Positions 1 to 19,043 of a stretch of DNA of 20,322 nucleotides are shown here, piece after piece. The position numbers were made by a program, and so were the translations under genes. Position 1 is the first letter of the stretch. Every line of letters begins with the position of its first letter. Origin of the DNA: Silvanigrellaceae bacterium (GTDB taxonomy: Bacteria; Bdellovibrionota_B; Oligoflexia; Silvanigrellales; Silvanigrellaceae); assembly GCA_049423385.1 (NCBI GenBank), contig JBMSQQ010000064.1, forward strand, positions 1-20,322, read 5' to 3'. Under the pieces are notes generated by a model. The model was given only the letters and a program-made list of their open reading frames with translations, was not told the origin of the DNA and did not search any database.

Positions 1-158
1 AAGTAGCTCTTGCCACCCTCAGCGTTTACAAAAGCAGGGTTCTCCGTCAGATTGTCGAAAACGTCGCGCGTCGAGCCAGCAAGCGAATCCGTAGCCGTTG
101 AAGCGAAAGAAAGGCTTGGAGCGAGAAGCGAAACGAAAACAAAACGTTTATGCAACAT
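1..158 (-). CDS. Partial (runs off window) putative secreted protein, N-terminus MLHKRFVFVSLLAPSLSFASTATDSLAG...
   Basis: Read by hand: ATG at 158 (minus) with AAGGAG 8 nt upstream; open to the window edge; signal-peptide-like N-terminus (basic, hydrophobic, SFA-S). Confidence 0.7.
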   Translation of the reverse strand, partial: MLHKRFVFVSLLAPSLSFASTATDSLAGSTRDVFDNLTENPAFVNAEGGKSY

Positions 159-276
159 GAACCATTCTCCTTGTTGGTGGGTTGCAGGGAAATGTTAACA
201 TGACAATTTCCCGGGAACCAAAAAATCTTACAAGGAATTTTTCAAACTGATCGATCCACAGGCAAGGAGCACATCC

Positions 277-1638
277 GTGAAACAGCACCTGCGCACTCTC
301 TCTTCATGCATCTCTCTTTTCTCTCTCGTTCATGCAGGACAAGCACTTTGCGCCGACTCCAAGGAACAACCGTTCGAGTTTCACAGCTACGGTCGGCTTG
401 GCTTTTCGACCAACGAAAAATTGACTGATGCGGGCCGTGATCAAGGTGATGGCGCATTTGGGCTTCCCACCAGTCGTCATGTTCGTGATTTGAATTATTT
501 GCGCATTCAGCTGCTGGGAAACATGAGCACGAAGGCAAAATTCAATCTTGAAGCGCAATTCGACAATCTCGCCCACCAGACCAACAATTGGAACGGAGCC
601 GGGCTCAATCTGCGCAATGCCTACTTTCAATTGCCACTCAACTCCGAGAGCGAAGGTTGGGTGGGAGCGCGCCGCCTTGAGTTTGAAGATGTGCGCCTGT
701 TCGACAAGTTCCCGCTCAGCGACACCACATTTTACGGTGCAGGCTTCACAACCCCAATCGCAGGTTCAGCAACGACCGTTGCAATTGGCTTCAAGAACCT
801 GGAAAACAGCCCGCTGCTTGTCGCCAAGGATCCCAACAACCCTGCTGCAGACAACGACAGCGTCGTGACCCAACGCCGCGACACATCGCTTTTCGTGCGC
901 CACGACATTTCACTCGACAGCAACATGGCGATTCGTCCAACCCTCATTCTCAGCCGCACCGGCAAGTATTTTCAAAACGGCGCGCCGCTGGACAACTATT
1001 CAACCGTGTTGGCAGACAAATCCGGCATCGCATCCAATGAAACACCAAAGCCAGTCGTCACCGGAAAACTCGGCGCGGTGCTCTCGCATTGGGGAAATGA
1101 AGGTTGGGGCAACCACTTCGTTTGGGCTGAGCAGCGCAGTGCTGCAGGACAAGTGGGGAGCACGGACAAGGACACCATCTACGGCCTGGCGACCTCGGGC
1201 GATTATGAAGGATTGAGCGACAGTGATGTTGGCCTGATGTACAGCGCCATCGTTCAGGTCACTCAGTACAAGAACGCACAACCCAAATACTCGCTCAAAG
1301 ACAATGCCTACGTTGCCAATGGTGACTCAACATCCAAGCGCAATACGCTTGTGGCGGTTGGGCTTCAGCCGGTGTACTACGCAACGCCCAATCTGCACCT
1401 GGCCCTGGATCTCAATCACACCCTGTCCACAAAAGTGGGTGCCGAGTTCGCCAAGCCCAACATGACTTTCATCACGCCAATTGTTCGTTATGCCACCAAC
1501 AAGAACGCTTTGGCCACGCCACAACTCTTCACATCGGTGACTTACGGCATCTATGAATCCAAGGCGCGCTTGTCGTCGACGGGAACTCCGAGCAAGACCT
1601 CGCTCACAACCCAAACAGGTTGCGAATTCTGGTTTTAA
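277..1638 (+). CDS. lamB: LamB/maltoporin-like carbohydrate outer-membrane porin
   Basis: Signal peptide; N-terminal FEFHSYGRLG resembles LamB DFHGYARSG; WVGARR and DVRLFD segments resemble LamB WAGKR...DVHMID; alternating beta-strand pattern; C-terminal aromatic beta-signal CEFWF; AAGGAG before GTG. Confidence 0.75.
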   Translation: MKQHLRTLSSCISLFSLVHAGQALCADSKEQPFEFHSYGRLGFSTNEKLTDAGRDQGDGAFGLPTSRHVRDLNYLRIQLLGNMSTKAKFNLEAQFDNLAHQTNNWNGAGLNLRNAYFQLPLNSESEGWVGARRLEFEDVRLFDKFPLSDTTFYGAGFTTPIAGSATTVAIGFKNLENSPLLVAKDPNNPAADNDSVVTQRRDTSLFVRHDISLDSNMAIRPTLILSRTGKYFQNGAPLDNYSTVLADKSGIASNETPKPVVTGKLGAVLSHWGNEGWGNHFVWAEQRSAAGQVGSTDKDTIYGLATSGDYEGLSDSDVGLMYSAIVQVTQYKNAQPKYSLKDNAYVANGDSTSKRNTLVAVGLQPVYYATPNLHLALDLNHTLSTKVGAEFAKPNMTFITPIVRYATNKNALATPQLFTSVTYGIYESKARLSSTGTPSKTSLTTQTGCEFWF

Positions 1639-3139: not shown

Positions 3140-3613
3140 TCAACTTTCTGCTTTCTTCCGTGCCTTCAAAAGTAGTCTGGTCAGGACGCGATCAAAGGCC
3201 TCGGCAAATTTCTTCTTGTCCAGGGCGCCATAGGCCGCTGGCCCTCCGGTCACCATGCCAGCCCCACGCAGCCCCTCCATGAGATCACGTGTGGCAAGAC
3301 GCTCGCCAATATTTCCGGAATCGAATTCTACACCGCGCCGGCTGATGGTCGAAACATTCTGCGTCACGCACCTGTGAGCCAGGGGAATATCGTCGGTCAC
3401 AACAAGGTCGTCGGGCGTTGCGTTGTCGGCGATGTAGTCGTCGGCAGCATTGAAGCCTTGGTTGACCACAATCATCTGCAAGTGAGGATGGGCTGGGAGT
3501 CGCACCCAACGGTCCGCCACCAGGACGACCGGAATCTGTGTCCGCAAAGAGGCCTTGAAGACGCACTCTTTCACATCATTTGGGCACCCATCCGCATCGA
3601 GCCAAATCCGCAT
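3140..3613 (-). CDS. yaiI: YaiI/YqxD family protein (DUF188, PIN-like)
   Basis: MRIWLDADGCP, FNAADDYI, DLVVTDDIPLA, NIGERLATRDLM, TGGPAAY motifs; 157 aa. Confidence 0.92.
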   Translation of the reverse strand: MRIWLDADGCPNDVKECVFKASLRTQIPVVLVADRWVRLPAHPHLQMIVVNQGFNAADDYIADNATPDDLVVTDDIPLAHRCVTQNVSTISRRGVEFDSGNIGERLATRDLMEGLRGAGMVTGGPAAYGALDKKKFAEAFDRVLTRLLLKARKKAES

Positions 3614-3819
3614 GTTCCTGTGTCACTCCCGTGGAAAGTGTTTTCCATTACTCTATATGCAAAATCGGCGAAATTCAGTCATTGGCCGAAATTCGACCAA
3701 CACCCGCTTCGGGACAGCACAATTCCGGCCAGCCAGCCTGTCGAGCATGGTCTGTTCAAATTTCGGCACATGGGAATCATGAGAATTTCTAATACCTGTT
3801 TGCTTGGCATGGTCATTGC

Positions 3820-3863
3820 TGTTGGTCGAACAGATGCTCGAAGCATCGACCAACAAAAAGGAG
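3820..3863 (+). promoter_or_regulatory. 5'-leader stem-loop abutting the RBS of the small peptide gene
   Basis: TGTTGGTC (3820-3827) pairs with GACCAACA (3848-3855); inner stem GATGCT/AGCATC (3833-3838/3842-3847); followed by AAGGAG (3858-3863). Confidence 0.5.
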
Positions 3864-3870
3864 TTATCCC

Positions 3871-4026
3871 ATGACAGTTCTATCCCTTGCACTCGCATTC
3901 GCTTCCAACAAAAAATCAAATAATGCCCGCCTCAGTCGCACCGCATCGGTCGAAAAGAACATCCGCGCCCTGAGACGCGTCGGTTCGACCCGGTTCGTCA
4001 TGATCGAAATGGGCTCACAGGGCTAA
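3871..4026 (+). CDS. 51-aa cationic peptide, putative RiPP precursor: MTVLSLALAFASNKKSNNARLSRTASVEKNIRALRRVGSTRFVMIEMGSQG
   Basis: Translated by hand (shorter than any ORF in the track). AAAAAGGAG 7 nt before ATG; TAA at 4024-4026; 52 nt upstream of and co-oriented with the HExxH gene. Confidence 0.75.
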   Translation: MTVLSLALAFASNKKSNNARLSRTASVEKNIRALRRVGSTRFVMIEMGSQG

Positions 4027-4078
4027 TCAAGAAGTCCTCATCCACCAACCCCAAATTCAGGATACACCGAGGAACAGC

Positions 4079-4981
4079 ATGCTTGGCCTTTATTCCTACC
4101 CCGAAATTTGCCAGTCGCTTTTGAATCTTGCCGACCCCGAAACATTGGCCGCCCATGGCTACACGAACCTTGGCCTTCGCATGGCAATCCAGGCCAGGGC
4201 TCAACAATTTGAGCCCGAGCTGCCAATCTGGAACACCGACAGTGCGGTGTTGATCGCTTCTAGCCAAAGGGAACTCGAAATGCGGCGACTGTTCTCGGGT
4301 CACAGCGAATTGAATGATCTTGGCCAAGCAACCGCGATCGACAGCTCCTTCTCGACAGAGGAACGAACATTCAAACTGCAACAGCTCCGAACGGCACTTG
4401 ATTTGATCAAATCACTGGATCCCAACCTGTCCGAAATTTTCCATGTTGTGGTCTCGTGCATTTTCACGTCCAGCTCATTAATGGCGGGAGGAGGAACATC
4501 CTCGGCAACGCCAGGAGTGATCTGGGCCAACCTGCGCCCGCACTGGAGCAGTTGGGATGTGGTTGAATTCCTGGTTCACGAGCTGACACACAATATTTTG
4601 TTCTTTGACGAATTCTCGGAGTTGCATTACCTCGACCACGCCAAGCTTTCGGATCCGACGACTTTTGCACAAAGCGCAATCCTCAAGCGCGCGCGACCGC
4701 TCGACAAGGTTTTTCACAGCATCATGGTCGGCATTGCGGTTTTGAACCTGCGAGCCAACTCTGTCCTGCAGTGCCACAACAATGGTTCATCACTTGCCAT
4801 GACCACAGGAATTCATCCCGACTCACTCACGCTGATTGCACAGATTCGCGCATCCATTGCATCTGTGGATGAGAACCGTCATGCACAAAGACTGCTCTCA
4901 GGCAGGGGCTTGGATTTGTTGAATCGGGCACGCCGTCGCATCGAGGAGTTTGCCAACGTTGGTGTCGCGCTGGCGATTTAA
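4079..4981 (+). CDS. aKG-HExxH-type peptide-modifying enzyme (putative Fe(II)/2-oxoglutarate peptide hydroxylase), stand-alone
   Basis: GGTSSATPGVIW strand, E-F-L-V-H167-E-L-T-H171, then SAILKRAR206P207LDKVFH213. This is the HExxH + RP + third His layout of the aKG-HExxH family. No signal peptide; GAGG RBS. Confidence 0.8.
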   Translation: MLGLYSYPEICQSLLNLADPETLAAHGYTNLGLRMAIQARAQQFEPELPIWNTDSAVLIASSQRELEMRRLFSGHSELNDLGQATAIDSSFSTEERTFKLQQLRTALDLIKSLDPNLSEIFHVVVSCIFTSSSLMAGGGTSSATPGVIWANLRPHWSSWDVVEFLVHELTHNILFFDEFSELHYLDHAKLSDPTTFAQSAILKRARPLDKVFHSIMVGIAVLNLRANSVLQCHNNGSSLAMTTGIHPDSLTLIAQIRASIASVDENRHAQRLLSGRGLDLLNRARRRIEEFANVGVALAI

Positions 4982-4997
4982 GTTTGGAGATTTTAAA

Positions 4998-6371
4998 ATG
5001 TTGCGAACACTCTTTTCCTCACCTGCATTTTTCCTTGCCTTGTTGTTTGTCATTCTTCAACAGGGAACCGTGGCGTCTTCCACATGGTTCCTTGCGCGTG
5101 TCACTGCAAACACGCAATCCACCTCTGAGGTTTTACCTTGGTTGGTGGGATTTTTGCTGAGTCTTGCGTTGCCCTATGTTCCCGGTGTTTTGGCTGTTCG
5201 CCAGGTGGCCCGGATGAAGAATTCGGCACAACGAAAGATCCTCGACCTTTTGCGAATTACCATCGAAGGCAAGACAACCCTCCTTTCCAACAAGGAGGAA
5301 CGGGAGAGAAGATTTGTCTTTCTCCAGCGTGAAGGCGAAGATTTTGTCGCACACTCGTGCGACGCCGGTTTCGATTTCACGCAAACAATTTTCAATGTCG
5401 TACTCAACATTGCAGCGCTTGTAATTGTTGTTCATCCGGCACTTCTTCCGGCCTATGTGGCAAGTTTGGCACTGATGAGTGCAGCCACACACCTTGGAAA
5501 GAATCCACTCACAACGGCAACCCGGGAACAACGCGAAGCCCTTGTGGGGTTCGACGCGGTTCAACTCACTGCCTGGGAAAACCTGACGATTGGCAATTCA
5601 ACCAACACATCGCGCTGGAATTCAACCCTTGAGTCACGGTTCGACAATCTGGCACAAAGACGCCTCAAACTCACAACCCTGCGCGAAATCACAAGTCTAT
5701 TGTCGACCTGGGCTGCAATGATTCCAGTCCTTGCTGCAAACATCTGGATGGTGACAAAAGCTTCATCCCCTGCCGAACTCGCTCTGCTTGTTGCAACCTT
5801 GCCCCGTCAGCTGATGGTGCTCAATCATCTGCACATCGTCAGCAGCTGGTCTGGATTTTTTCACGAACTGAGTGAGCGCTATCAGGGACTCAAAGCTGCA
5901 CTTTCAGAAGTTTCCGCGAACGCCCGAAGGGAACACGACAGCAACATCCGGTTCAACGAGCTTAAGATTTCGCAGGTGGGCGATTCAATCACCGCAGCTG
6001 GCCTCGAAACCGAAAGCAACCCCGAAAAGATGGCCTTCTGGGCGAAGAAGGCCCAGCAAGGACGATTCCGGATTGAGGGTGGCAATGGCACCGGAAAATC
6101 AACGCTGTTGCGCTCGCTGAAGGAGTCGCTGGGCCGTGATGCCTTTTATCTTCCGGCCGAACACTCCGCCCTCGATTTTCCGGTTGCCGGTGGCCTGAGT
6201 TCCGGACAACGTGCCCGCTCGATTCTCGAAAACCTCAAGATTTCAGCTCCGCGCGTGCTTTTGCTCGACGAATGGGATGCCAACCTGGATATGCACCATC
6301 GGAAATTGCTGGACCAGTTCATCAGCCAGCTCTCGGAAAAGCACCTGGTCCTTGAGGTCAGGCACAATTGA
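4998..6371 (+). CDS. ABC exporter, fused transmembrane domain + short ATP-binding domain
   Basis: ATG 4998 with GGAGA; about 5-6 hydrophobic segments; Walker A GGNGTGKST, signature LSSGQ, Walker B/D-loop LLLDEWDANLD, H-switch EVRH. Confidence 0.88.
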   Translation: MLRTLFSSPAFFLALLFVILQQGTVASSTWFLARVTANTQSTSEVLPWLVGFLLSLALPYVPGVLAVRQVARMKNSAQRKILDLLRITIEGKTTLLSNKEERERRFVFLQREGEDFVAHSCDAGFDFTQTIFNVVLNIAALVIVVHPALLPAYVASLALMSAATHLGKNPLTTATREQREALVGFDAVQLTAWENLTIGNSTNTSRWNSTLESRFDNLAQRRLKLTTLREITSLLSTWAAMIPVLAANIWMVTKASSPAELALLVATLPRQLMVLNHLHIVSSWSGFFHELSERYQGLKAALSEVSANARREHDSNIRFNELKISQVGDSITAAGLETESNPEKMAFWAKKAQQGRFRIEGGNGTGKSTLLRSLKESLGRDAFYLPAEHSALDFPVAGGLSSGQRARSILENLKISAPRVLLLDEWDANLDMHHRKLLDQFISQLSEKHLVLEVRHN

Positions 6372-6455
6372 TGAAGCCGATTGTTTCCGTGTGGCGACAA
6401 GTTTTGATACAAAACTCTTTCGCAGCTTCGCCACCGGAACACAAAAGGCAAAACA

Positions 6456-7934
6456 ATGTCCGAACAAAACCCAAAGTCATCGCCCGGCTGGAATCTTCAG
6501 CACAGCTACGCCGAACTTCCAGCTGTTTTTCATTCCAACGTGTCTCCCACTCCGGTGTCGAGTCCCCGGCTGGTGGTACTCAACAAGCACTTGGCTTCAA
6601 GCCTGGGGCTGAATGCAGAGCTTCTGGCTTCGGGTGAAAATGTGGAGATTTTTTCGGGCAACAGGTTGCCCGAAGGAGCAAACCCGATCGCACAAGCCTA
6701 TGCGGGACATCAGTTCGGCGGTTTCACGATGCTTGGCGATGGCCGGGCGATTCTGCTGGGCGAACAATCCACGCCCGAGGGCGACACGTTCGACATTCAG
6801 CTCAAAGGCCCGGGACCCACTCCCTATTCGCGTCGGGGCGATGGCAGGGCCGCACTCAAACCCATGCTTCGCGAATACATCATCAGCGAAGCCATGCACG
6901 GCTTGAATATTCCAACCACACGCAGTCTTGCCGTCGTCAGCACCGGTGAGTCTGTCATCCGCGAAGACATTCAACCTGGTGCAATCCTGACCCGTGTGGC
7001 ATCGAGCCATATCCGCGTCGGAACTTTTGAATTTGCGCGGGCACAGGGTCAGCCGGAAGATTTACATGCACTCATCGAGTACACCCTCATCCGGCATTTC
7101 CCGGAAGGCTTCGCCACCGAGAATCCAACCCTTGCGCTGCTTGAAGAAGTGGTTTCCCGGCAAGCGCACCTCGTTGCCCGCTGGATGCACTTCGGCTTCA
7201 TCCACGGAGTCATGAACACAGACAATATGTCGATTTGTGGCGAGACCATCGACTACGGCCCCTGCGCATTCATGGACACCTACAACCCCGCGACCGTTTT
7301 CAGCTCCATCGATCGCGAGGGGCGCTACGCGTATGCGAACCAGCCGCGCATTGCCTTGTGGAACCTCGAGAGATTTGCCGAAACACTCCTGCCCTTCTTG
7401 GACGAGTCGGAAGACAAGGCCGTCGAAACAGCGCAAAACGCGTTGGAAAGCTTTGCCGACATCTACAACGAAGCATGGCTCAACGGCATGCGTTCGAAAT
7501 TGGGATTGTTTGACGCGATGCCGGAAGATTCAGCCCTGGTGACAGAATTCCTTGGCTTGCTGCACAAGACCAATTCCGATTACACCAATTCATTTCGCTC
7601 GCTCACACAGTACCCCACGGGTTTTCCCGAAAGCCCGCTCTTTTCGTCTGCGGAATTTTCAGCTTGGAACAAAAAATGGAGCGAACGTAGACAACAGCAA
7701 CACAAATCCGAGAAATATGTGGTTGAACTGATGCGGCGCAACAGTCCAAGCGTGATTGCCCGCAATCATCGGGTTGAGGAAGCACTTTCTGCCGGCGAGA
7801 AAGGCGATATTGCGCCAATGGAACGGCTGCTCAAGGTGTTGGCAACACCTTTTGAAGACTCTGTCGAGCATGCCGAATTCAGCCGCGAACCCGGACCAGA
7901 CTTCATCGGCTACAAAACGTTTTGTGGCACTTGA
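6456..7934 (+). CDS. selO: Protein adenylyltransferase SelO (YdiU/UPF0061 family)
   Basis: YAGHQFG, LGDGRA, QLKGPGPTPYSRRGDGRA, PTTRSL, GFIHGVMNTDNMSI, IDYGPC, C-terminal TFCGT. Confidence 0.96.
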   Translation: MSEQNPKSSPGWNLQHSYAELPAVFHSNVSPTPVSSPRLVVLNKHLASSLGLNAELLASGENVEIFSGNRLPEGANPIAQAYAGHQFGGFTMLGDGRAILLGEQSTPEGDTFDIQLKGPGPTPYSRRGDGRAALKPMLREYIISEAMHGLNIPTTRSLAVVSTGESVIREDIQPGAILTRVASSHIRVGTFEFARAQGQPEDLHALIEYTLIRHFPEGFATENPTLALLEEVVSRQAHLVARWMHFGFIHGVMNTDNMSICGETIDYGPCAFMDTYNPATVFSSIDREGRYAYANQPRIALWNLERFAETLLPFLDESEDKAVETAQNALESFADIYNEAWLNGMRSKLGLFDAMPEDSALVTEFLGLLHKTNSDYTNSFRSLTQYPTGFPESPLFSSAEFSAWNKKWSERRQQQHKSEKYVVELMRRNSPSVIARNHRVEEALSAGEKGDIAPMERLLKVLATPFEDSVEHAEFSREPGPDFIGYKTFCGT

Positions 7935-7939: not shown

Positions 7940-8416
7940 TTATTCGCAGACCAATTCTTGAAAGCCGGAAAGACTTGGAGCAGAGAAGTGCTCCTGCATT
8001 TCGTCAAGAAAAATATCGCTGGCACCCGAGCGTTCACGCAATTTGCGCAAAACTTCGGCCAGACGCTCGATTTGCTCGTCGCTCCATTCTTCACCCGGCT
8101 TGAAATCAATCCTCAGGGCGTTCTCCAAAACTCCCAATCCCAGGTCGGGCAATCCGTAGGATTTCTTCACCAACAAATGTCGCCCAGATTCCACCATCTG
8201 GATAATCTCCTGCAGCGTGTACTTGTCTGAAAGCAATTCACGCTTGCGGGAGCCTTCGCGAGCCATGGAACTCGCAGCCAGATTGGCGTTGGCAATCAGA
8301 ATACCGATGGCTTTTCTGAGTCCTTCCGGCGACGCAAATGACAGCGAAATTTCTGGAAGCGTGCCATCGAATTCTCTCATCTGTTGCTTGAAACATTCCA
8401 CGTTGTCCATATCCAT
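7940..8416 (-). CDS. Hypothetical acidic protein (158 aa)
   Basis: Protein-like composition; fills the gap between selO and the protease; no recognised motif. Confidence 0.6.
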   Translation of the reverse strand: MDMDNVECFKQQMREFDGTLPEISLSFASPEGLRKAIGILIANANLAASSMAREGSRKRELLSDKYTLQEIIQMVESGRHLLVKKSYGLPDLGLGVLENALRIDFKPGEEWSDEQIERLAEVLRKLRERSGASDIFLDEMQEHFSAPSLSGFQELVCE

Positions 8417-8552
8417 GTTTCTTTCCCGCTGGCTGAAAAATTCAAATCAGAATCGAATGAAGGGATTCCCACTCCTCCAGATTAACCCCAGACAATCATG
8501 GAGCCAACAACAACAATCCGCCACGCACTGGAAACAATGCCCGGTTTCATTT

Positions 8553-9341
8553 ATGAATCTCAACATGAGAAAATCATTCGTCTTGAATTCCATGATTGCG
8601 AGTCTTTTGGCGGGCTGTGATGGCGGTTTTGCACCCCATCCGGAAGCCGACCATTTCATGCCGAAGTCATTGAAAAATCAGGATGTGGAAGAAAAAATCA
8701 TCGGCGAAAACAATCTCATTCCGGTGACCGCGAGCGCCGACAACCTCCCGGTCGAAATGCGCCATCTTGTTGACGCTGTAGGCCAACTCAACTTGGGCTG
8801 CACCGCAACCCACATCGGTTCCGGTCTCGTTCTGACCGCAGGTCATTGCATTTCAAAAAGCCCACGCAGCAGCACAAACAGCTGCAGACATCTTGGCGTG
8901 GTTTGGGGAAATCGTGGGGGCAATACACAGCTCTCGGCTTCCAAATGCCTGGAAGTGAAAATACGGGTCTACAATGACACCCTCGATTATGCGCTTTTGA
9001 AAGTTGAGAACCCGCCCGCTGCCTTCATTCCGGTTGAAACTGAGCCGACAACACTCACCACGCCCGCGACGATGTTGAGTCACCCACGCATGCGACCGCT
9101 CGAGTGGTCTGGAATTTGCGGATTGTCCGTTTACGAAGATCCAAAGCGTGCATCGGAAAAATTCTTCCACTCGTGCGATTCCGAAGGCGGAAGCAGTGGT
9201 GCAGCAATATTGTCGCGCGAGTCATTGCGAATCATTGGAATTCACAATGGTGCCAGCGACGAACTCAATTATGGAATTTTCATCACAGCAATAACTGATC
9301 TTGCAAAGTTGATCACCTCGGCAGACATGGTGGCACACTGA
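8553..9341 (+). CDS. Trypsin-like (S1) serine protease lipoprotein
   Basis: Lipobox LLAGC; KIIG pro-peptide junction; catalytic triad motifs LTAGHC, DYALL, CDSEGGSSGA. Start is 8553 or 8565, not 8217. Confidence 0.88.
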   Translation: MNLNMRKSFVLNSMIASLLAGCDGGFAPHPEADHFMPKSLKNQDVEEKIIGENNLIPVTASADNLPVEMRHLVDAVGQLNLGCTATHIGSGLVLTAGHCISKSPRSSTNSCRHLGVVWGNRGGNTQLSASKCLEVKIRVYNDTLDYALLKVENPPAAFIPVETEPTTLTTPATMLSHPRMRPLEWSGICGLSVYEDPKRASEKFFHSCDSEGGSSGAAILSRESLRIIGIHNGASDELNYGIFITAITDLAKLITSADMVAH

Positions 9342-11191: not shown

Positions 11192-11995
11192 TCACTTGGC
11201 CGCGGGAAGCGCTGAATACATTTTATTGATGCCATCAATGTCGAGCTGGTTTGGCCAAACAATACCTTTTTCATAGTCGAAATTACGGTAAAAACAGCGC
11301 TCCATGAACGATGTTGGATTCCAGGGGCCAATCTGCCTGTCACCAGCTTGCGGATTCTCGTCGAATTCAACGCACTTGTTGTCCGAATGCGCATCTTCAT
11401 GACGCATGCCAATCGCGTGGCCAAACTCGTGAAGACTTGACGAAATCATCAGATTCTTTTTTCCGACCGCGCTCAGCCGATTGCGGATGTCGTTGAAATA
11501 GGGACTCGCATCCCGCCCTGTCATGCTCAAGATGATTCCCGCTCTTCTTCCAAGCAACCAATTCTTCGCGTTGGCCGTGTCGACATTGATACGGGGATGA
11601 CCAGGGTAACCCGCGAGAGCCCTGTTTGTTGAGACCACGAAAGATTTCGTCTCGCGGTATTTGGGATTCGAACCGCTCCCGGGGTCATCATAGATGAATA
11701 TTCTGAAGTCGGCGCCATAGCCGCCGTCTGGACAAGCCCCCCATCCAGTGAACCTCAATTTTGTTTTTGCAAACGCCTTGCTGACAGTCGATTGAAATTC
11801 GCTGCGGAAGTCCTGGGTGTCATCCGAAATCACTTCCCAACACACGGAAACATTTGAGCTCCTCAATTTCGAGGTGGCATAAAAGATCGATTCAACTTGT
11901 GAATCGCCACCTTCTTTCAGTGAGGGACGACAGCCGTTTGCCAGAATCGCAGCCGTCAGCAGAAAGCCAACTGCAGAAAAATACCGAGGATTCAT
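11192..11995 (-). CDS. Secreted zinc metalloprotease lipoprotein (metzincin-like)
   Basis: Lipobox-like LANGC; HEFGHAIGMRHE (HExxHxxGxxH) zinc motif; Met-turn-like SFME; DIDGINKMY C-terminal helix; GGAGG RBS. Confidence 0.85.
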   Translation of the reverse strand: MNPRYFSAVGFLLTAAILANGCRPSLKEGGDSQVESIFYATSKLRSSNVSVCWEVISDDTQDFRSEFQSTVSKAFAKTKLRFTGWGACPDGGYGADFRIFIYDDPGSGSNPKYRETKSFVVSTNRALAGYPGHPRINVDTANAKNWLLGRRAGIILSMTGRDASPYFNDIRNRLSAVGKKNLMISSSLHEFGHAIGMRHEDAHSDNKCVEFDENPQAGDRQIGPWNPTSFMERCFYRNFDYEKGIVWPNQLDIDGINKMYSALPAAK

Positions 11996-12101
11996 TGCAG
12001 AACCTCCAATTGCCCACTTCGCTCAATTCAAAAAGACGAGAAGCGTATCGGAGTTTCACTGATGAAAAATTATTGAAATCAAAAATTACCCAGTAAGTCC
12101 A

Positions 12102-12115
12102 AGCGGATATCCGCT
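12102..12115. promoter_or_regulatory. Perfect 14-bp palindrome AGCGGATATCCGCT (operator or weak hairpin)
   Basis: Self-complementary; lies between the rfbD stop and the metalloprotease start. Confidence 0.3.
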
Positions 12116-12129
12116 ATAAAACTCAAAAA

Positions 12130-13026
12130 TCAAGAGATTTTTTGTACCATTTCGAGCTGGTCTTTCCAGTCCGGAAGACGAACACCAAACGTGGTCGCAC
12201 ACTTGTCATTGGAGAGAATCGAATTGGCAGGACGCTTGGCCGGAGTTGGATATTCAGCCGTTGAAATGGGTATGACTTGTTTGCATTTGATTTCGTCCTG
12301 GCGTGGATCGCTTGCAACAATTTCACGTGCGAAGTCGAACCACGAACACGAACCCGCTGCACTCATGTGATAAACCCCACTGCGGGCACCCACGAATTCC
12401 ATCAGCGCTCCCTCCTTGCCGACAAGCCCCTGAGCAACAATCTGTGATGTTGCCAAAGCAATCATGCGGCTCCAGGTCGGTGAACCCAGCTGGTCTTTCA
12501 CCACTTTGAGTTCCTCTCGCTCACGCGCCAACCTGCGCATGGTCTTGTAGAAGTTGGCGCCAAAATGTCCGTAAACCCAGGCGGTGCGAAAAATAAAATA
12601 GGCACAGCCGCTGTTGCGAATTGCTTCTTCACCCTCAAGCTTTGTGCGGGCATAGACGCCTTGTGGTCCGGTGGGATCGGTCTCTTTCCAGGGAGCACTT
12701 CCACTGCCGTCGAAGACGTAGTCGGTTGAATAATGAACCAATGGGATTGCTGATTTTTTACTCAGTTCTGCAAGCAGTGCAACCGCATCCACGTTCAACA
12801 ACTTTGCCGCATCCGGCTCACTTTCAGCCTTGTCGACAGCCGTGTAGGCCGACGCGTTGATCAGCAAATCCGGGCGAAAATCAGCAACAAGTGCACGAAT
12901 TTTGGCAGGATTGGTGGCATCCGCAAGTTCACGCCCGGCGCACAACACCTGACCCAACGTCGGCAGGGTTTGAGCCAATTCGTTTGCCACTTGTCCGTTG
13001 CGTCCCACGACCAAAATCCGTTTCAT
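12130..13026 (-). CDS. rfbD: dTDP-4-dehydrorhamnose reductase
   Basis: ATG 13026 with [55 protein letters not shown]. Confidence 0.96.
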
Positions 13027-13105
13027 GCCTGTCCTCCGCAGGGTCTGCAAAGCCCCAAACTTGGAGCAAACTCTGCCATGTGGTACGCAACAAGTCACGA
13101 TTGTG

Positions 13106-13138
13106 TGTGGAAAACATGTGGAAAACCCGTGGAGAGAC
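13106..13138 (+). repeat. Direct repeats TGTGGAAAAC x2 plus a degenerate third copy, 11-bp period, DnaA-box-like
   Basis: TGTGGAAAA at 13106-13114 and 13117-13125 (reverse complement TTTTCCACA fits TTWTNCACA); CGTGGAGAG at 13128-13136. Confidence 0.5.
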
Positions 13139-13139
13139 T

Positions 13140-14186
13140 ATGAACAAGACCATTCTTGTGACCGGCGGAGCAGGCTTTATTGGCTCAGCCGTTGTGCGCC
13201 ACCTCATGGCCAGCAGCGATTACAACATCGTCAACGTCGACAAGCTCACCTACGCCGCATCTCCCGAATCGGTCGGAAACGCACAAAACAGCTCGCGCTA
13301 CACACTTCTGCAAACAGACATTTGCGACCTCGCTGCACTGCGCAAAGCGTTTTCCACCCATCGCCCGGCAGCGGTGATGCATCTTGCCGCCGAAAGCCAC
13401 GTCGACCGTTCAATTTCGGGTCCTGGCGCCTTTGTGCAAAGCAACATCGTTGGCACCTACAACATGCTCGAAGCCGCCCGCGAATATTGGAACGGCCTTT
13501 CGGAAGGCGACAAGCGCAGCTTCCGCTTTCATCACATTTCAACCGACGAAGTGTTTGGAACGCTGGGCGACTCCGGATACTTCACAGAAACCTCGCCGTA
13601 TCAACCAAACTCGCCTTATTCCGCGAGCAAGGCATCTTCCGATCACCTCGTGCGTGCATGGCATGAAACGTTTGGATTGCCTGTTTTGGTGACCAACTGC
13701 TCCAACAATTACGGCCCATGGCAAGCCCCCGAAAAACTCATTCCGGTGGTGATTCTTTCGTGCCTGAATGGCAAACCGATTCCCGTGTATGGCGAAGGCA
13801 AAAATGTACGCGACTGGTTGTTCGTGGATGATCACGCACGTGCGTTGGTCTCCGTGGTTGAAAAAGCAACGCCTGGGAGCACCTGGAACATCGGCTGCCA
13901 CAACGACGTTCCCAACCTCACCATCATTCGCAAAATCTGCGCGCTGATGGACGAACTCTCACCCAACAAGGCGAAAGTGAAAAAGCACGAAGACCTGATT
14001 TCTTTCGTGAAAGATCGTCCTGGGCATGACTTCCGCTACGCCATCGATCCGAAAAAGATCGAAACCGAACTGGGCTGGAAGCCGCTTGCAGATTTCGACG
14101 CTCACCTGCGCACGACTGTGAAGTGGTACCTCGAGAACCAAGCTTGGTGCGACAAGGCGCTGGCACGAATCAAAAGCGGGATGTGA
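13140..14186 (+). CDS. rfbB: dTDP-glucose 4,6-dehydratase
   Basis: ATG 13140 with [66 protein letters not shown]. Confidence 0.97.
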
Positions 14187-14231
14187 TTTCGCGGAAAGTA
14201 AGTCTACGGCAGGCGATTCCGCGCATTCCAA

Positions 14232-14840
14232 TCAGAGCTTGAAATATTCCATCACCTTTGTGGCGAACGAAAAAGCCACGCTTGCGACCGAAATGAAATA
14301 ACCCCAACTGGTCAAGTGAAACAGGTGGCCAAGCACGACCATCAAACCGTCGCGCATCAAGAATCCCAATGAAAAAAATGTGATTGCCAACGCGGGAAGA
14401 GTGTTGGTGAATGGAATCACCGGAGGAATGGGCAGCGCAAGTGCAATGGCTGCCAGAATCATGGCCACCGTGGCCAAGACCTTCGAGATTCCCGACACCA
14501 GATATTCGGCCCGAGGCTTGAGGTATTTTTCAATGCGTACAGCGTAGCTGTGACTCTTCTCGGCGAGCATCGAAACGGTCTTGCCGCTCAGCGTGATGCG
14601 ATCGGCGAGCTGCGGCAGTGGCAATGGTCGCGGCCAGCCAATTCGAATCGTCAGCAGGATGATCGCAAAGCCAAATGCCGTCGAAATTCCAGGAATGGGC
14701 ATTGGAAAAAGAAATGGAAGACACAGAAATATAATCGTCAGAGGAGCTCCATCATCGCCAAAGAGCTCGTCTATGCGACGCAAGGTCAGAGTCGATTCCG
14801 GATGCACGCTTCTCATTGTTTCCAAACGCTTCGAAACCAC
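14232..14840 (-). CDS. exoD: Exopolysaccharide synthesis ExoD family membrane protein
   Basis: LPFLFPMPIPGISTAFG, RIEKYLKPR, LPIPPVIPFTNTLPA, LMRDG motifs; probable GTG start at 14840 (start uncertain). Confidence 0.85.
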   Translation of the reverse strand: MVSKRLETMRSVHPESTLTLRRIDELFGDDGAPLTIIFLCLPFLFPMPIPGISTAFGFAIILLTIRIGWPRPLPLPQLADRITLSGKTVSMLAEKSHSYAVRIEKYLKPRAEYLVSGISKVLATVAMILAAIALALPIPPVIPFTNTLPALAITFFSLGFLMRDGLMVVLGHLFHLTSWGYFISVASVAFSFATKVMEYFKL

Positions 14841-14977
14841 GTCGTCCCCCAAAACAATCCTGACGCCAATAGATAATTCAGGAACCAAACAGAACGCAAA
14901 TCAATGTCGCCGATGAGGCACAGTCTTGATTCCTGAAAAGATTGTGAAACCAACACTCCGCCTTGCACCCCGATTGA

Positions 14978-16057
14978 ATGAAGCTGCCTTGGAAGTCCGC
15001 TCAACAGTTTACAGGGAGCCCAACCTTGTCATCGGAAAAGCCGACCAAACAAACCGACATTTGGAAAGGACTGAGCCTGCTGGGCCTCACATTCAATCAT
15101 CTCTTGCTTTGGCCTTGCAGCAACCTCTCGTTCGCCTTGAACTTCACTTATCAAAGTGTTGGATGGGTGTCGTTTGCCTCTGTTTTCTTTGCCATTGCCG
15201 GAATCCAGTGGGGACGCCGGGCGGAAAATCAAACACCCCAACAACTATTACACTGGAATTTCAAAAGAGCGATCAAACTCTTTGCCTGGGTGGGTTGTGC
15301 CACCGCCATTTTCACTCTCGCAAATAGGACGTCTCTTCTTGAACCGGCTCCATGGCAACGACACTTGATCTGGAATGCACCCTCAACAGTTCTGAGGGCG
15401 ATTGCAGGTTTCCAGCTGCCCTGGCTTTTGGACGTCATTTGGCTACACGCCTGGCTGGGTGTGTATGCAACAATTCTTTGGAGCTTGCCCAAAATCCGCA
15501 GCTCCTCTCTTTGCATCGCGCTTGCCAGTGCCAGTGTCTGGCTGCTTTCGCAGGCCGGCTCCTTCGACTTCCAATCTCAACTGTTCAGTGCACCTTCATG
15601 GCATGCATGGACAGGATGGCAGCTCTTGTTTGTGGGCTGCGCACTGAGCCAACGCCCGGATGTTCAGGCTATTGTAAGCCATTTTCAAAAGAACAGTGCG
15701 CGGTTGATTATCATTATCGCCGCCATTGCGCTTTTGATATCGAAGCACACCCTGAGCAAAGCAAACGTCGACCCGTTTCTACAAACTCAAAAATTTGGAC
15801 CTTTATTTGCAACCAACACAGTCTGTTTTTGCCTGCTCTTGGGCGAACAAAAATTTCCGCGCATGCCAAACATCGTTGCAACGTTCGGGAAAAGAAGCCT
15901 GCTTTTCTACTCGATGCAGTGCGTGGTCATTTATACACTTGGAAGCCACACCACCTTTGCTCAAAATCAAAAAATCTTGTCGCTCTGCTTCGTGATTTTT
16001 GTATGTTTGGCATTGCCCGCATTCTGTTGGCTTTTTGTTCGGCGGAGGTCCCGATGA
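14978..16057 (+). CDS. opgC: OpgC-like membrane acyl(succinyl)transferase (AT3-related)
   Basis: DIWKGLSLLGLTFNH (cf. DxxRGLALxxIxxxH), GWVSFASVFFAIAG, WQLLF, GKRSLLFY; about 10 TM segments. Confidence 0.65.
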   Translation: MKLPWKSAQQFTGSPTLSSEKPTKQTDIWKGLSLLGLTFNHLLLWPCSNLSFALNFTYQSVGWVSFASVFFAIAGIQWGRRAENQTPQQLLHWNFKRAIKLFAWVGCATAIFTLANRTSLLEPAPWQRHLIWNAPSTVLRAIAGFQLPWLLDVIWLHAWLGVYATILWSLPKIRSSSLCIALASASVWLLSQAGSFDFQSQLFSAPSWHAWTGWQLLFVGCALSQRPDVQAIVSHFQKNSARLIIIIAAIALLISKHTLSKANVDPFLQTQKFGPLFATNTVCFCLLLGEQKFPRMPNIVATFGKRSLLFYSMQCVVIYTLGSHTTFAQNQKILSLCFVIFVCLALPAFCWLFVRRRSR

Positions 16058-17031
16058 ATCTTCGCTCTCTTCGTCAGAGAAAAAATATCATTGTCGCGGC
16101 CGACACACAGGCCTTTGCGACTGTTGTCAGAAATTCCGACACAGCATGGCGCAACCGCACCCAGGTGATTCCAATTGCATGCACGCAGGAAGTGGTGAAT
16201 GTCCTTCCCAATTCAAGGAATACTCTGATCGTCGTGGATCCCCATTGCAAACTTGATCGCGCGCAGGAAGACCTCATCAATGAAACACTCGCGTGTGGAG
16301 CACAATGGTGCACGCTGAGCATGTATGAAGGCATCCAGAAAGGAATCGCCAATATCCGAGGTTTTTCGGATGTGTTGGAATGGGTTCATTGGCAAGACCA
16401 CTCTTTGGCAGAACACCTGTGGGACAAAACCACATGCCTTGCCCGGAGACTCACAGCTCTCGGGCTTCTCATGACACTCTCGCCGCTGATGGCAGCTCTA
16501 TGGGTCTGCATCCGAATCACCAGCCCCGGACCTGCACTTTTCAGGCAGCGACGCGTGGGTCACCACGGAAAACAATTTGAGCTCGTCAAATTCAGAACAA
16601 TGCACCTCAATGCCGAGGCAAATGGACCGCAATGGAGCAAGGGAGACGAAGACCCAAGGCTCTTCCCTCTTGGAAAGTTTCTGCGAAAAACGCATCTCGA
16701 TGAACTTCCTCAGCTGTGGAACATTCTTTGCGGACATTTGTGCTTTGTGGGTCCGCGACCCGAGCGACCCGAATTCCACGATTGGCTCAAGAATCACATC
16801 CCGCATTTCAATATAAGAACGCGCGTGAGGCCAGGACTGACTGGCTGGGCGCAACTCAAATCGGGTTATGCATCGAGCGTCGAAGAATCCAAGACAAAAG
16901 TGGCGCACGACATCTTTTTCATTCGTTCGAAACAGACTCATCTTGTTGCATTGATTGTCATCCAGACTGCCCGCAAATGCCTGTTTGAAATTCTCTCGTC
17001 TGTTTTCAGTCGAATAAAAAAAGTGCGGTGA
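16054..17031 (+). CDS. Priming sugar transferase (phosphoglycosyltransferase, Bac_transf family)
   Basis: ATG 16054 (ATGA overlap, GGAGG RBS); SPGPALFRQRRVG, KFRTM, DPR, GKFLRKTHLDELPQL, VGPRPERP, RPGLTGWAQ. Confidence 0.92.
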   Translation: MNLRSLRQRKNIIVAADTQAFATVVRNSDTAWRNRTQVIPIACTQEVVNVLPNSRNTLIVVDPHCKLDRAQEDLINETLACGAQWCTLSMYEGIQKGIANIRGFSDVLEWVHWQDHSLAEHLWDKTTCLARRLTALGLLMTLSPLMAALWVCIRITSPGPALFRQRRVGHHGKQFELVKFRTMHLNAEANGPQWSKGDEDPRLFPLGKFLRKTHLDELPQLWNILCGHLCFVGPRPERPEFHDWLKNHIPHFNIRTRVRPGLTGWAQLKSGYASSVEESKTKVAHDIFFIRSKQTHLVALIVIQTARKCLFEILSSVFSRIKKVR

Positions 17032-17055
17032 AAAGTTACCCACACGGAGCTGAAC

Positions 17056-18177
17056 ATGCAGGTCGTTCATGTGCTCAACTGCGGAACTGTCAGTGGCCCC
17101 GAGATGCTCGTGCTGCCGGAGTTGGCCAACTTTCCCTGTTACACCGTCGTATGGAATCTCGCTGAAAAACGCATAAAGTCGGCCTTCGACCCGCTCGCGC
17201 GTCTCTGTGCGACGTTGAAGGTTCCCGTTTTGTCGTTTGAAATTTCATCAAGATTCGATGTTTCGGCAATTCTCAATTTGACCCGCACACTCGAGACACT
17301 GCCGGATGGTGCCATTGTTCATACACATGACGTCAAAGCCAGCATTTATGTCTGGTTGGCAAGCTTTCTTGTAAAGCGACGCAAATTGCATTTTGTGGCG
17401 ACTCACCATGGCGCCATGGCAAGACCCAATCGACTTTCGCGCATGTACGAGCGTCTTTTTGTTTCGCTTGCAGGCCATTGCGTGGACCTGTTTCTCTGTG
17501 TGAGTGAAAGCGAATACGACCTCCTCACCTCTCGCGGATTTCGAGCTTCAATCTTGCGTCTTCACCGCAATGGCATCGAGCGTCCGTTGTTGAAATGGTC
17601 CGAGCGCAGGGCTCTGTCAAAAGGTGAAAAATTGAAACTGCTGATGGTGGCGCGTCTTTCTCCCGAGAAGAACCACGCCCGTGCACTGGCGGTTCTCCAG
17701 AAGTTCAATTCCCTTTTCGAAGGTCAATGGAGTCTTGACATCTTCGGCAACGGCTCACTCTTTGATGAACTTCAAAATTCGGTTCACTCGGCTGGGCTCC
17801 ATCGAAAAGTATTCTTTCGAGGTTATCTTCAGGAAGCCTGGAGGGAATTTGATTCCTACGACTGCCTCCTGATGTTTTCAACCGGCGAGGCAATGCCCAT
17901 CACCTTGCTCGAAGCCGGATGGCGCTGCACACCGGTGTTCTCCTCTGCTGTGGGTGGAATTCCTGAAGTCTGTGGTCCGGAAGGCGGTCGGCTGTTTCAA
18001 CTTGAGGAATCCGACGATTCCATTGCCCGGAAGCTTCTCGATTTTGTTTCAAGCAAAGAACTTGTTCGCCGCACCGCCGAACGTTTACAGGAGAGGGTCA
18101 CCACACATTTCTCAGGTCGTCGTTGGCGCAATGAACTCTTGACCCACTACAACGGATTGCTGGGAGCAGACCAATGA
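17056..18177 (+). CDS. Glycosyltransferase family 4 (GT-B fold)
   Basis: IVHTH, ATHHG, CVSE, HRNGI, VARLSPEKNH, EAMPITLLEA, VGGIPE. Confidence 0.92.
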   Translation: MQVVHVLNCGTVSGPEMLVLPELANFPCYTVVWNLAEKRIKSAFDPLARLCATLKVPVLSFEISSRFDVSAILNLTRTLETLPDGAIVHTHDVKASIYVWLASFLVKRRKLHFVATHHGAMARPNRLSRMYERLFVSLAGHCVDLFLCVSESEYDLLTSRGFRASILRLHRNGIERPLLKWSERRALSKGEKLKLLMVARLSPEKNHARALAVLQKFNSLFEGQWSLDIFGNGSLFDELQNSVHSAGLHRKVFFRGYLQEAWREFDSYDCLLMFSTGEAMPITLLEAGWRCTPVFSSAVGGIPEVCGPEGGRLFQLEESDDSIARKLLDFVSSKELVRRTAERLQERVTTHFSGRRWRNELLTHYNGLLGADQ

Positions 18178-19043
18178 GACTCTTTTACTTCTTCATTTCA
18201 CTCCTGGTCTGTGCTGGCATTGAAACGACGCTTCTTGCCAATGGAGCAGCCCAGACATTGGCGCCCGGAAGTGTTATCAGACTCTCTTCCGCAAATGAAC
18301 AGAGTATGAACGTGACCATCGAACTCGATTGGAACGGCGACGCCGCTGTACCATTGTGTGGAAAAATGCGTCTTGCAGGGCTATTACCGGATGATGCTCT
18401 TGAAGAACTTCGTCTTTGCCTCGCTCGTTTTTTCAAAAAAAAGCTGGAGCTCTCGATTCAGGAAACAAGTCCGCGTCAGCTCGCCATTCGCATTGGCAAA
18501 CGCGGAGAAGCTCCTAAAGAAATTCGTGCTGCAGAGCGGGTATCGATTGCTTCGCTGATGGCGAAGGAGGGTCTGCCTGTTGAGGAGAAGACGATCATCC
18601 GCCTGCTGTCTCCTTACGGAATGGACCTTGTTGCCTCCGCGACATCCAAGGTTTGGTCGCAGCCTTTTCAATGGCGCGGGGGCGAGTCGGTTGTTGTCGA
18701 GACAGCATCTGACCTCAAGACAAACGAAAGCTTCGACGTGCTTGGCGAAGTGCGAAAGCCAGGAAAGTATCAGTACAAGCCATCGCAAACAGTCATCGAT
18801 GTGCTGAGGGATGTTCAAGGCCCCACCCCGCAGGCCAGTTTTGATTCGGTCTTTATTTATCGCCATATGAAGAGCGAAAAAATCGAGACGACCTGGGACG
18901 ACAAATCCCACAAGATAGAACCCGGTGACATCATCCTCGTGCCCAGTCAAAAAGAAGGTGTGTTCGACAAAAGCCTCAGGTGGAGCAGTTCTATTCTTGC
19001 CATCGTCAACACCATGTTCCTCATCCTGCTTGCCCGACGGTGA
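18174..19043 (+). CDS. Polysaccharide export protein, Wza-like (Poly_export + SLBB domain)
   Basis: LAPGSVIRL...DWNGDAAVPLCGKMRLAGL; VLGEVRKPGKY; IEPGDIILVP; C-terminal hydrophobic/amphipathic helix; ATGA overlap with GT4. Confidence 0.85.
   Translation: MRLFYFFISLLVCAGIETTLLANGAAQTLAPGSVIRLSSANEQSMNVTIELDWNGDAAVPLCGKMRLAGLLPDDALEELRLCLARFFKKKLELSIQETSPRQLAIRIGKRGEAPKEIRAAERVSIASLMAKEGLPVEEKTIIRLLSPYGMDLVASATSKVWSQPFQWRGGESVVVETASDLKTNESFDVLGEVRKPGKYQYKPSQTVIDVLRDVQGPTPQASFDSVFIYRHMKSEKIETTWDDKSHKIEPGDIILVPSQKEGVFDKSLRWSSSILAIVNTMFLILLARR

Follow-up and report, generated by a model that had tools for sequence, protein, structure and literature searches.

A precursor peptide, a stand-alone aKG-HExxH enzyme and a compact ABC half-transporter as a probable minimal RiPP-type cassette in a Silvanigrellaceae bacterium

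Can a peptide of the RiPP class, made by ribosomes and modified after translation, be produced by a locus in which a single oxygenase is the only recognizable tailoring enzyme? This question is raised by three adjoining genes in a Silvanigrellaceae bacterium (GenBank assembly GCA_049423385.1), located in positions 1 to 20,322 of contig JBMSQQ010000064.1, a stretch of 20,322 nucleotides that was analysed as a whole and is called the window below. The genes specify a small peptide, a protein of the alpha-ketoglutarate-dependent (aKG) HExxH type and a compact ATP-binding cassette (ABC) half-transporter. The trio probably represents one self-contained minimal RiPP-type cassette, made up of a precursor, an aKG-HExxH oxygenase as the sole tailoring enzyme and a compact ABC exporter. 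Its members are:

3871..4026, + strand: candidate precursor peptide gene, 51 codons (51 aa) with an ATG start, read from the sequence
4079..4981, + strand: stand-alone aKG-HExxH gene, 300 aa, 52 nt after the peptide open reading frame (ORF)
4998..6371, + strand: compact ABC half-transporter gene, 457 aa from its ATG, 16 nt after the HExxH gene

An earlier reading made from the letters alone (the sequence-only reading) had placed three co-oriented genes between yaiI and selO, with gaps of 52 and 16 nt and a ribosome-binding site (RBS) ahead of each, and both the coordinates and the spacing proved exact. The signals and the two flanking genes are as follows:

3858..3863, + strand: RBS AAGGAG of the precursor gene, 7 nt ahead of the ATG, read from the sequence
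4069..4074, + strand: RBS GAGGAA of the HExxH gene, read from the sequence
4986..4989, + strand: RBS GGAG of the ABC gene, 8 nt ahead of the ATG at 4998, read from the sequence
3140..3613, - strand: yaiI/DUF188 flank, from the Pfam/NCBIfam scan of the window
6456..7934, + strand: selO flank, from the same scan

It had also stated that no radical S-adenosylmethionine (rSAM) enzyme, C39 peptidase or other tailoring gene accompanies the trio, and indeed a Pfam comparison of 19 window proteins returned no Radical_SAM, no C39 peptidase and no other recognisable peptide-tailoring family, nor any MNIO or nitroreductase. The three cassette genes match no peptidase family in Pfam or NCBIfam, hence no dedicated leader peptidase is found among them, and the ABC protein carries no C39 domain in either collection, its chain beginning with the first transmembrane helix in the AlphaFold2 (AF2) model. 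A longer start of the ABC gene, the TTG at 4950 given in the ORF list, was rejected, as it overlaps the HExxH gene and finds no backing in the alignment of homologues.

The linkage of the three genes extends far beyond this genome. A pattern scan over one genome per prokaryotic species revealed 91 relatives of the enzyme, the best 80 of which were kept as loci (handles beginning with L). A homologue of the ABC gene, 445-490 aa long, stands beside the HExxH gene in 56 of these 80 loci, co-oriented and downstream in 52, joined to it in one fused ORF in one (L033) and convergent in three; it is lacking in 24 loci, and in 4 of these the contig breaks off within 700 nt of the end of the enzyme gene. 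To find the peptide, 14 upstream short ORFs, taken by their coordinates, were turned into a profile, which was run over 20,646 stop-to-stop frames from the 80 loci and the window. This seed profile matched 45 frames at E<0.01 (14 being the seeds themselves), and in every case this was the plus-strand frame that ends immediately ahead of the HExxH gene. Iterated once, the profile matched the upstream frame in 53/80 loci at E<0.01 and in 68/80 at E<1, while the first off-site frame appeared at E 1.4. The conserved upstream short ORF and ABC neighbour, proposed as a check by the sequence-only reading, are thus borne out by the homologues, so that the refuting outcome named by that reading, homologues without a conserved upstream peptide, did not occur.

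In the wider family the peptides are 40-90 aa long; an amphipathic segment at the N-terminus, a (Q/E)-x-N-(V/I) region and a C-terminal core of the form ..[N/R]-M-I-A-[F/Y]-[D/E] are common to them. When 51 distinct cores were tabulated by anchoring on the invariant Met, a procedure that misplaced the anchor in a few Bordetella-type tails, 3-14 residues were found between this Met and the C-terminus, with the following preferences:

Position -2 from the Met: Leu, 26/51
Position -1: Asn, 22/51, and Arg, 11/51
Position +1: Ile, 31/51
Position +2: Ala, 40/51
Position +3: Phe, Tyr, Trp or His, 39/51
Position +4: Asp or Glu, 43/51

Carriers of the cassette belong to many phyla, among them Photorhabdus, Acerihabitans, Moraxella, Acinetobacter, Vibrio, Bordetella, Cupriavidus, Herbaspirillum, Paraburkholderia and Legionella, and further Chlamydiae, Verrucomicrobiae, Calothrix (cyanobacteria), Cardinium, Fimbriimonadia and several Bdellovibrionota. 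It is also found on an Acinetobacter plasmid (L097, NZ_CP127913.1), with a RepB gene and two transposase genes as neighbours, and on a megaplasmid of Ralstonia (L098, CP021449.1), where a JmjC-type fourth gene is present and all parts are annotated as hypothetical. Across these two replicons, public annotation of the cassette parts reads 'hypothetical protein', 'HEXXH motif-containing putative peptide modification protein' or 'ATP-binding protein'. Judged from sequence, the window trio and its close relatives form a divergent branch of this widespread cassette family.

Within this branch, the peptide gene can be followed in five genomes. Orthologues of the peptide ORF stand 5' of the enzyme gene in four loci, L001, L002, L003 and L090 (a metagenome contig), whose enzymes are 88, 62, 61 and 72% identical to the window enzyme, respectively; L090 came from a metagenome scan for relatives that returned three loci, and its core shows the variant ..RFVMMDLG. 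All five peptides, counting that of the window, have 51 codons and align without gaps at 51-59% identity, and N30, I31, A33, L34, R35, R41, F42, V43, M44 and G48 are invariant in all of them (5/5). Over residues 28-48, the proportion of non-synonymous differences (pN, 0.02-0.32) lies below that of synonymous ones (pS, 0.48-0.86) in 10/10 pairs of the five genomes. AAGGAG or AGGAGG is situated 7-8 nt before the ATG in 4/5 members, and L090 has the weaker AAAGGAA. Neither Pfam nor NCBIfam assigns the window peptide or 8 related peptides to a family. The small ORF can be regarded on these comparisons as a real gene, because its 51 codons are kept without insertions or deletions in five genomes and residues 28-48 are under purifying selection. 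A leader of residues 1 to about 36, containing the invariant N30-I31-x-A33-L34-R35, and a core of about 37-51, containing R41-F42-V43-M44 and G48, are predicted; the core of the window peptide reads ..V-G-S-T-R-F-V-M-I-E-M-G...

The genus of the window bacterium provides a view of the presence, absence and decay of the cassette. In the congeners L001 and L002 it occupies the same slot between yaiI and selO, and in L003 it is located between unrelated genes. An empty site is observed in congener G011 (L092, G011:C204:1-2106), with yaiI at 148-606 (- strand) and selO from 823, about 216 nt apart. The selO match of G011 comes in two pieces split at 1221, which may reflect a frameshift. Altogether, a match to the enzyme is found in 5/12 other genomes of the genus, one of them being a decayed copy and another a fragment lying at the end of a contig. 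The decayed copy, in G007 (L086, G007:C159:24491-28375; about 636-2425 in locus coordinates), again lies in the yaiI-selO slot. Its peptide ORF has 43 aa and stops before the core, HExxH and H213 are both gone from its enzyme homologue (297 aa, 45% identity), and selO begins 30 nt after the enzyme ORF, no ABC gene being present. This joint loss of all three functions is what is expected of interdependent parts, and the three genes behave as one unit.

The same decay gives rise to the thought that the window cassette is itself an inactive relic heading for loss, as in G007 and Cardinium, and the patchy occurrence in the genus, the existence of an empty site and a core that departs from the family consensus all agree with it. 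This is nevertheless highly improbable, given that the three ORFs are intact, each with an RBS, that neither the enzyme nor the ABC protein lacks any of its catalytic motifs, and that the peptide core is under purifying selection in five genomes whose enzymes are only 61-88% identical.

The assignment of the enzyme draws on model score, motifs and predicted fold. NCBIfam TIGR04267 (IPR026337), the model of the aKG-HExxH-type peptide beta-hydroxylases, matches it with 60.5 bits (curated cut-off 40), residues 104-228 covering profile positions 2-126 of 177, and a search of the 3.47-Mb genome returned the window enzyme as the single TIGR04267 match (61.4 bits). A search of protein collections gave 82 homologues of 165-525 aa, and the conservation of motifs was counted in an alignment of 27 of these. 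Two motifs are central:

4577..4591, + strand: HELTH motif, residues 167-171 (H167, E168, H171), presumed metal ligands
4694..4720, + strand: RPLDKVFHS motif (R206, P207, H213), presumed 2-oxoglutarate and third-ligand region

P207 is conserved in 27/27 homologues, H167, H171 and H213 in 25/27 and R206 in 24/27, and D177-E178, H183, the string P207-L-D-K-V-x-H213-S and H246-P247 are likewise invariant or nearly so. H167, H171 and H213 are taken here to be the Fe ligands and the R206-P207 region to be the 2-oxoglutarate site. By score, motifs and modelled fold, the window protein is placed in the aKG-HExxH family, as the sequence-only reading had recognized from HExxH, an RP motif and a third His. 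HExxH is missing only from P0012 and P0014 among the 27; these two and P0013 are three distinct clusters of proteins 297 aa long, with 45-46% identity to the window enzyme, and in P0012 and P0014, as aligned, the ORF is intact with HExxH replaced by V-G-C-I-S-K and H213 by Arg, so that either a retained pseudo-enzyme or recent decay in several genomes is represented.

Since an HExxH motif and a zincin-like fold are also those of a metallopeptidase, the protein might instead act hydrolytically as the leader peptidase of an unmodified, secreted bacteriocin-like peptide. No other protease is encoded in the cassette, and according to passages of PMC12636437 the related PflC hydrolyses a truncated substrate. 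The structure search recommended by the sequence-only reading for 4079-4981 speaks for the oxygenase. The AF2 model of the enzyme (pLDDT 90.3, pTM 0.91) has as its top Foldseek match 8s5f, the HExxH domain of the aKG oxygenase ChlB (E 7e-8, prob 1.00, TM 0.54), whose record is titled 'novel alpha-ketoglutarate dependent oxygenase', and as its second match 22ob (SjiH, E 7e-6), for which no describing paper turned up in the literature search. Zn peptidases follow only from E 0.09 upwards (E >= 0.09) with TM <= 0.26. The ChlB domain was reportedly described by Morishita et al. (Nat Chem, 2024) as the beta-hydroxylase of triceptide/cyclophane RiPPs. Together with the passed TIGR04267 cut-off, the lack of any Pfam match, and thus of any Pfam peptidase family, and the RP..H and HP motifs typical of the family alignment, these matches make a hydrolytic leader peptidase quite improbable. 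A sequence search of the PDB with the 27-homologue profile gave chance-level matches only, and no longer (fused) relatives of the enzyme were found at E<=0.001, a search that is weak evidence of absence.

Contact between the enzyme and the peptide was addressed by complex prediction from the enzyme alignment and the 5-sequence peptide alignment. The pair scored 0.88 and the best of 3 controls 0.01, the score being the model's own confidence and not a measurement; the mark thereby passed is reached by 116/157 solved complexes and by 2/215 mismatched pairs, rates that are only rough here owing to the custom alignments. Runs agree in at least 90% of contacts, with partner pLDDT of at least 72. 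The contacts of lowest error are those between the invariant leader helix (peptide residues 26-35) and enzyme residues 40-44 and 178-182; peptide residues 37-47 contact enzyme residues 164, 167-168, 171, 207, 209-210, 213 and 245, i.e., the HExxH and RP..H site. The predicted docking supports binding of the precursor by the enzyme and a role of the peptide as its substrate. No solved structure of a lone HExxH enzyme bound to its precursor is known to us, so memorised structures seem an unlikely source of the high score.

A mechanism can be proposed in which the leader, comprising the N-terminal two thirds of the peptide and in particular the N-I-x-A-L-R helix at 30-35, would dock on the enzyme, and a stand-alone non-haem Fe(II)/2-oxoglutarate oxygenase of zincin-like fold would oxidise the last ~15 residues, the core. 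Side-chain beta-hydroxylation would be the most likely reaction; it is assumed by default since hydroxylation of His, Asp, Phe, Gln and Pro in RiPP precursors is what characterised members of the family carry out, as reported in parts of PMC13060819. A homodimer of the compact ABC protein would then move the product across the inner membrane, and the product may serve as a signal or an antimicrobial. Because the cassette encodes no protease, the leader might be kept, or its removal might fall to the HExxH enzyme or to a housekeeping protease.

The same cassette could support another chemistry, in which the HExxH enzyme abstracts an alpha-C-H hydrogen and cleaves the backbone oxidatively, hydroxylation being absent or secondary; C-terminal residues would be trimmed to leave a C-terminal amide, or the leader would be removed. 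This is modelled on the stand-alone PflC and PosC of Pseudomonas, which, as portions of PMC12636437 relate, oxidatively remove a C-terminal ARMD tetrapeptide and can hydrolyse the same site. The conserved motif of the present family also lies 3-14 residues from the C-terminus, its invariant Met follows Arg or Asn in many members, and a protease gene is wanting. Such cleavage is considered unlikely, as the other characterised aKG-HExxH members are hydroxylases in the sections of PMC13060819 that treat them, PflC and PosC need the Ala of their motif (PMC12636437, in part) where the window clade has Glu or Asp, and the precursors here have neither a Gln run nor an NHLP-type leader; the window peptide and the five-member alignment are without a Gln run and without ARMD. 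Thus, beta-hydroxylation is retained as the most likely step, with an oxidative backbone cut of the PflC/PosC kind as the less likely one.

Likeness to the known pathways goes together with clear differences. ChlBH shares with the window enzyme the TIGR04267 family, the HExxH motif, the place of top structural match and a ribosomal peptide as substrate (predicted in the case of the window). It differs in being fused to an rSAM cyclophane synthase and in requiring a pre-formed cyclophane, as part of PMC12636437 sets out, whereas the window enzyme stands alone with no rSAM in the window, and the two are 12-14% identical in the structural alignment. Triceptide/Fxs-type rSAM-HExxH systems have a cyclophane-forming rSAM/SPASM partner, fused or adjacent, which is missing at the window locus. 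PflC and PosC come closer in what passages of PMC12636437 describe, with a stand-alone HExxH enzyme, a motif near the precursor C-terminus, cluster transporters, no protease gene and a leader-dependent activity that has its counterpart in the leader docking predicted for the window peptide. The pfl and pos clusters, in the same passages, contain an MNIO-nitroreductase fusion, a GNAT and NHLP-type precursors with a Gln run and ARMD, none of which occurs in the window.

BpmH/BipH (biphenomycin) and PesO (nitrilobacillin) belong to the same family and are RiPP hydroxylases acting on Phe or Pro, and the bip cluster has a JmjC oxygenase, as do some relatives of the window cassette. In the available parts of PMC12707348, PMC13060819 and PMC12257519, however, these enzymes are accessory to MNIO, B12-rSAM, arginase, an Asn-synthetase-like enzyme and dedicated peptidases, in contrast to the sole tailoring role of the HExxH enzyme in the window, and the precursor motifs FRFRS and R(V/T)DN given there are unrelated to the window core. 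Identity with a biphenomycin-like cluster was discarded on the ground that FRFRS is unrelated to the window peptide. A link to TMcin was likewise dropped, since the TMcin papers concern a different HExxH protease.

The third gene specifies a transporter of unusual build. Its AF2 model (pLDDT 85.5) shows a six-helix membrane domain, and Foldseek matches comprise BmrCD, MsbA, TmrAB, ABCB8, IrtAB, PCAT1, McjD and TAP (E 6e-9 to 3e-7, prob 1.00), with the importers YbtPQ and IrtAB also among them. With 457 aa against about 550-590 aa of these matches, it is about 110 residues shorter, and a type IV exporter-like membrane domain (about 1-305) is combined with a nucleotide-binding domain (NBD) of only about 110-135 aa. 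Conservation was counted across 28 homologues, with the following motifs:

6078..6104, + strand: Walker A GGNGTGKST, residues 361-369, N363, G364, G366 and K367 invariant
6195..6209, + strand: ABC signature LSSGQ, residues 400-404, S401 and G403 invariant
6258..6290, + strand: Walker B, catalytic Glu and D-loop LLLDEWDANLD, residues 421-431, D424, E425 and W426 invariant, D427-D431 at least 90% conserved
6354..6368, + strand: H-loop EVRHN, residues 453-457 at the extreme C-terminus, E453 and H456 at least 90% conserved

The homologue consensus has G-x-N-G-x-G-K-S for Walker A, S-[ST]-G-[QE] for the signature, L-L-D-E-W-D-A-N-L-D and E-V-R-H, along with a conserved Y-L-P-A motif, and most homologues end within a few residues of the H-loop. 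From Walker A to the signature there are about 34-40 residues, compared with about 91 profile positions in CcmA models. Pfam ABC_tran scores 24.2 against a gathering score of 25, over residues 358-376 only, and ABC_membrane gives no match on the protein; a full-size NBD with helical subdomain, Q-loop and ABC_tran/ABC_membrane above gathering is not what is found here. In the model and the alignment, the ABC protein appears as an exporter-like but non-standard member from which most of the NBD helical subdomain is gone. With McjD, PCAT1, TmrAB/TAP and MsbA-like exporters it shares the fold of the membrane domain and all catalytic motifs of the NBD, and it adjoins a peptide-modification gene; from type IV exporters it differs by the ~110 missing residues, the short span between Walker A and signature, the end at the H-loop and the lack of C39.

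Whether this protein exports the product must be weighed as well, since the peptide could be modified and remain to act in the cell or at the membrane, the ABC protein being an importer, a sensor or an immunity pump. The presence of YbtPQ and IrtAB among the fold matches and the atypically short NBD fit with this, as does the window Pfam scan, in which no outer-membrane or periplasmic adaptor genes were seen near the cassette. This is improbable in view of the G007 copy, from which the peptide core, the enzyme ligands and the ABC gene have disappeared jointly, of the fusion of ABC protein and enzyme in L033, of the peptide exporters PCAT1, McjD and TAP among the close fold matches, and of the MFS efflux-type genes that related loci without the compact ABC gene carry in its place. 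Export as the final step of a RiPP-type pathway is hence the direction favoured for the trio.

Several observations weigh against the view of the trio as a precursor, its sole oxygenase and an exporter. Profiles of the wider precursor family, whether seed or iterated, miss the window-clade peptides at E<=10, and hhalign of the clade against the family is weak (probability 29.6%, E 5.7e-4). The core of the window peptide is without the consensus Ala, aromatic and acidic residues of the family and thus offers no obvious target residue, and the target residue and even the type of reaction may differ in the window clade. R206 is not universal in the enzyme family (24/27), a short NBD without most of its helical subdomain might not be a competent ATPase, and 20/76 uncut loci have no compact ABC gene and have other partners, e.g., MFS transporters. 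The docking score, as a model's confidence in itself, is to be counted on this side too.

That the window peptide is homologous to the ..MIA[F/Y]D family is supported chiefly by its position and architecture and by intermediates such as L025, whose core ends ..R-F-V-M-I-A-F-D... The weak hhalign alignment pairs N-I..A-L-R with N-V..M-R of the family and ..F-V-M-I with ..V-R-M-I, Met-Ile being in register. At Met+2, +3 and +4, the window has Glu-Met-Gly and L090 has Asp-Leu-Gly, versus Ala-aromatic-acid in the family, and it is mainly because of this divergence that the target residue cannot be named.

The sequence-only reading had gone on to call the locus a distinct RiPP type. The trio of precursor, oxygenase and exporter is supported, whereas its singularity is not: the window cassette is a divergent sub-clade of a widespread family and not a one-off, and other members add JmjC proteins, methyltransferases or other enzymes. 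The enzyme family and the RiPP logic are already known; in the literature searched, no description was found of a trio with HExxH as the sole maturase, of its precursor family or of the compact ABC partner, which are thus apparently undescribed, with the proviso that the similarity networks and supplements of the van der Donk preprints may include the cluster as an uncharacterised node, as may the network data of Morishita et al. (2024). A bolder interpretation, possible but on the doubtful side, would see in the trio a new RiPP class in which the aKG-HExxH oxygenase, as sole maturase, modifies the core around the invariant Met and also releases the product oxidatively. The transporter would in that case be a previously unrecognised minimal-NBD type of exporter and the product a small diffusible signal or antimicrobial of predatory, symbiotic and pathogenic Gram-negatives, with the window clade retuned to a Glu/Met/Gly core.

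The significance of the cassette lies in its simplicity. In the pathways of the aKG-HExxH literature examined, as far as the consulted portions of these papers extend, the enzyme works beside other maturases (rSAM, MNIO, Asn-synthetase-like), and a cassette with HExxH as the only tailoring gene offers the simplest system in which to study leader reading and the action of this enzyme class on a linear peptide that carries no modification. Wide distribution under hypothetical annotations means that a whole natural-product family may have gone unnoticed. The exporter retains all the catalytic motifs within an NBD about half as large as usual, which makes it relevant to how ABC ATPases work.

Variation around the cassette was recorded in many loci. 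Accessory genes in some of them encode JmjC/cupin oxygenases (18 loci), methyltransferases, a B12-radical SAM enzyme, GNAT and MFS transporters. RiPP clusters commonly show this combination of a fixed core and changing accessories. The JmjC/cupin loci, from Burkholderiales and Vibrio, are L027-L030, L032, L035, L036, L039-L041, L045, L052, L055, L058, L059, L061, L063 and L067; the additional gene follows the ABC gene, or in Vibrio stands between the enzyme and ABC genes, and the precursors have a longer conserved core, ..W-N-M-N-Q-P-L-N-M-I-A-Y-E-D-Q... Methyltransferase genes occur directly 3' of the HExxH gene in Photorhabdus L010, L011 and L013 (5747-6625), in L019 (5744-6610) and in L026 (5646-6524), the methyltransferase-bearing loci being those of Photorhabdus, Arcicella and Oscillatoria, which suggests O- or N-methylated variants of the product. 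Two to three tandem HExxH paralogues per locus are present in L021, L037, L047, L068, L069, L071, L079 and L080 (Bdellovibrionia, Amoebophilaceae, Streptomyces and Nocardia); the actinobacterial tandem loci are without the compact ABC gene, and of the two inspected L047 has an MFS gene instead, likewise L022.

In L033 (Bordetella sp. 02P26C-1, 4767-7031), the HExxH and ABC parts form one ORF of 754 aa, which is either a true fusion or the result of a one-base assembly error; in the other Bordetella loci L031, L054 and L057 they are separate ORFs that abut or overlap. In the Cardinium endosymbiont (L070, 4869-5747), the HExxH gene is broken into two ORFs, an N-terminal one of 108 aa and another for the C-terminal part, with a 41-aa peptide gene and the ABC gene still present.

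As for the regulation and surroundings of the window cassette, a sigma-70 promoter scan of 3500-6600 gave 0 sites and Rfam no match at E<=1 over 3400-6600. Terminator-like sites in 3500-6600 number 8, versus 4.2 +/- 2.2 in shuffled sequences, none being convincingly placed 3' of the operon. A gene for a trypsin-like serine protease (8217-9341, + strand; Trypsin_2, E 3e-10) is located downstream of the cassette at a distance of 1.8 kb, with selO and a 158-aa gene in between. A polysaccharide-type cluster that appears unrelated to the cassette extends over 11192-20101 and encodes an RmlD-like reductase, a dTDP-glucose/GDP-mannose dehydratase-like enzyme, ExoD, a Bac_transf sugar transferase, a GT4 glycosyltransferase and a Poly_export/SLBB protein. 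Other genes of the window specify a porin-like protein, a TPR lipoprotein and a chromate transporter.

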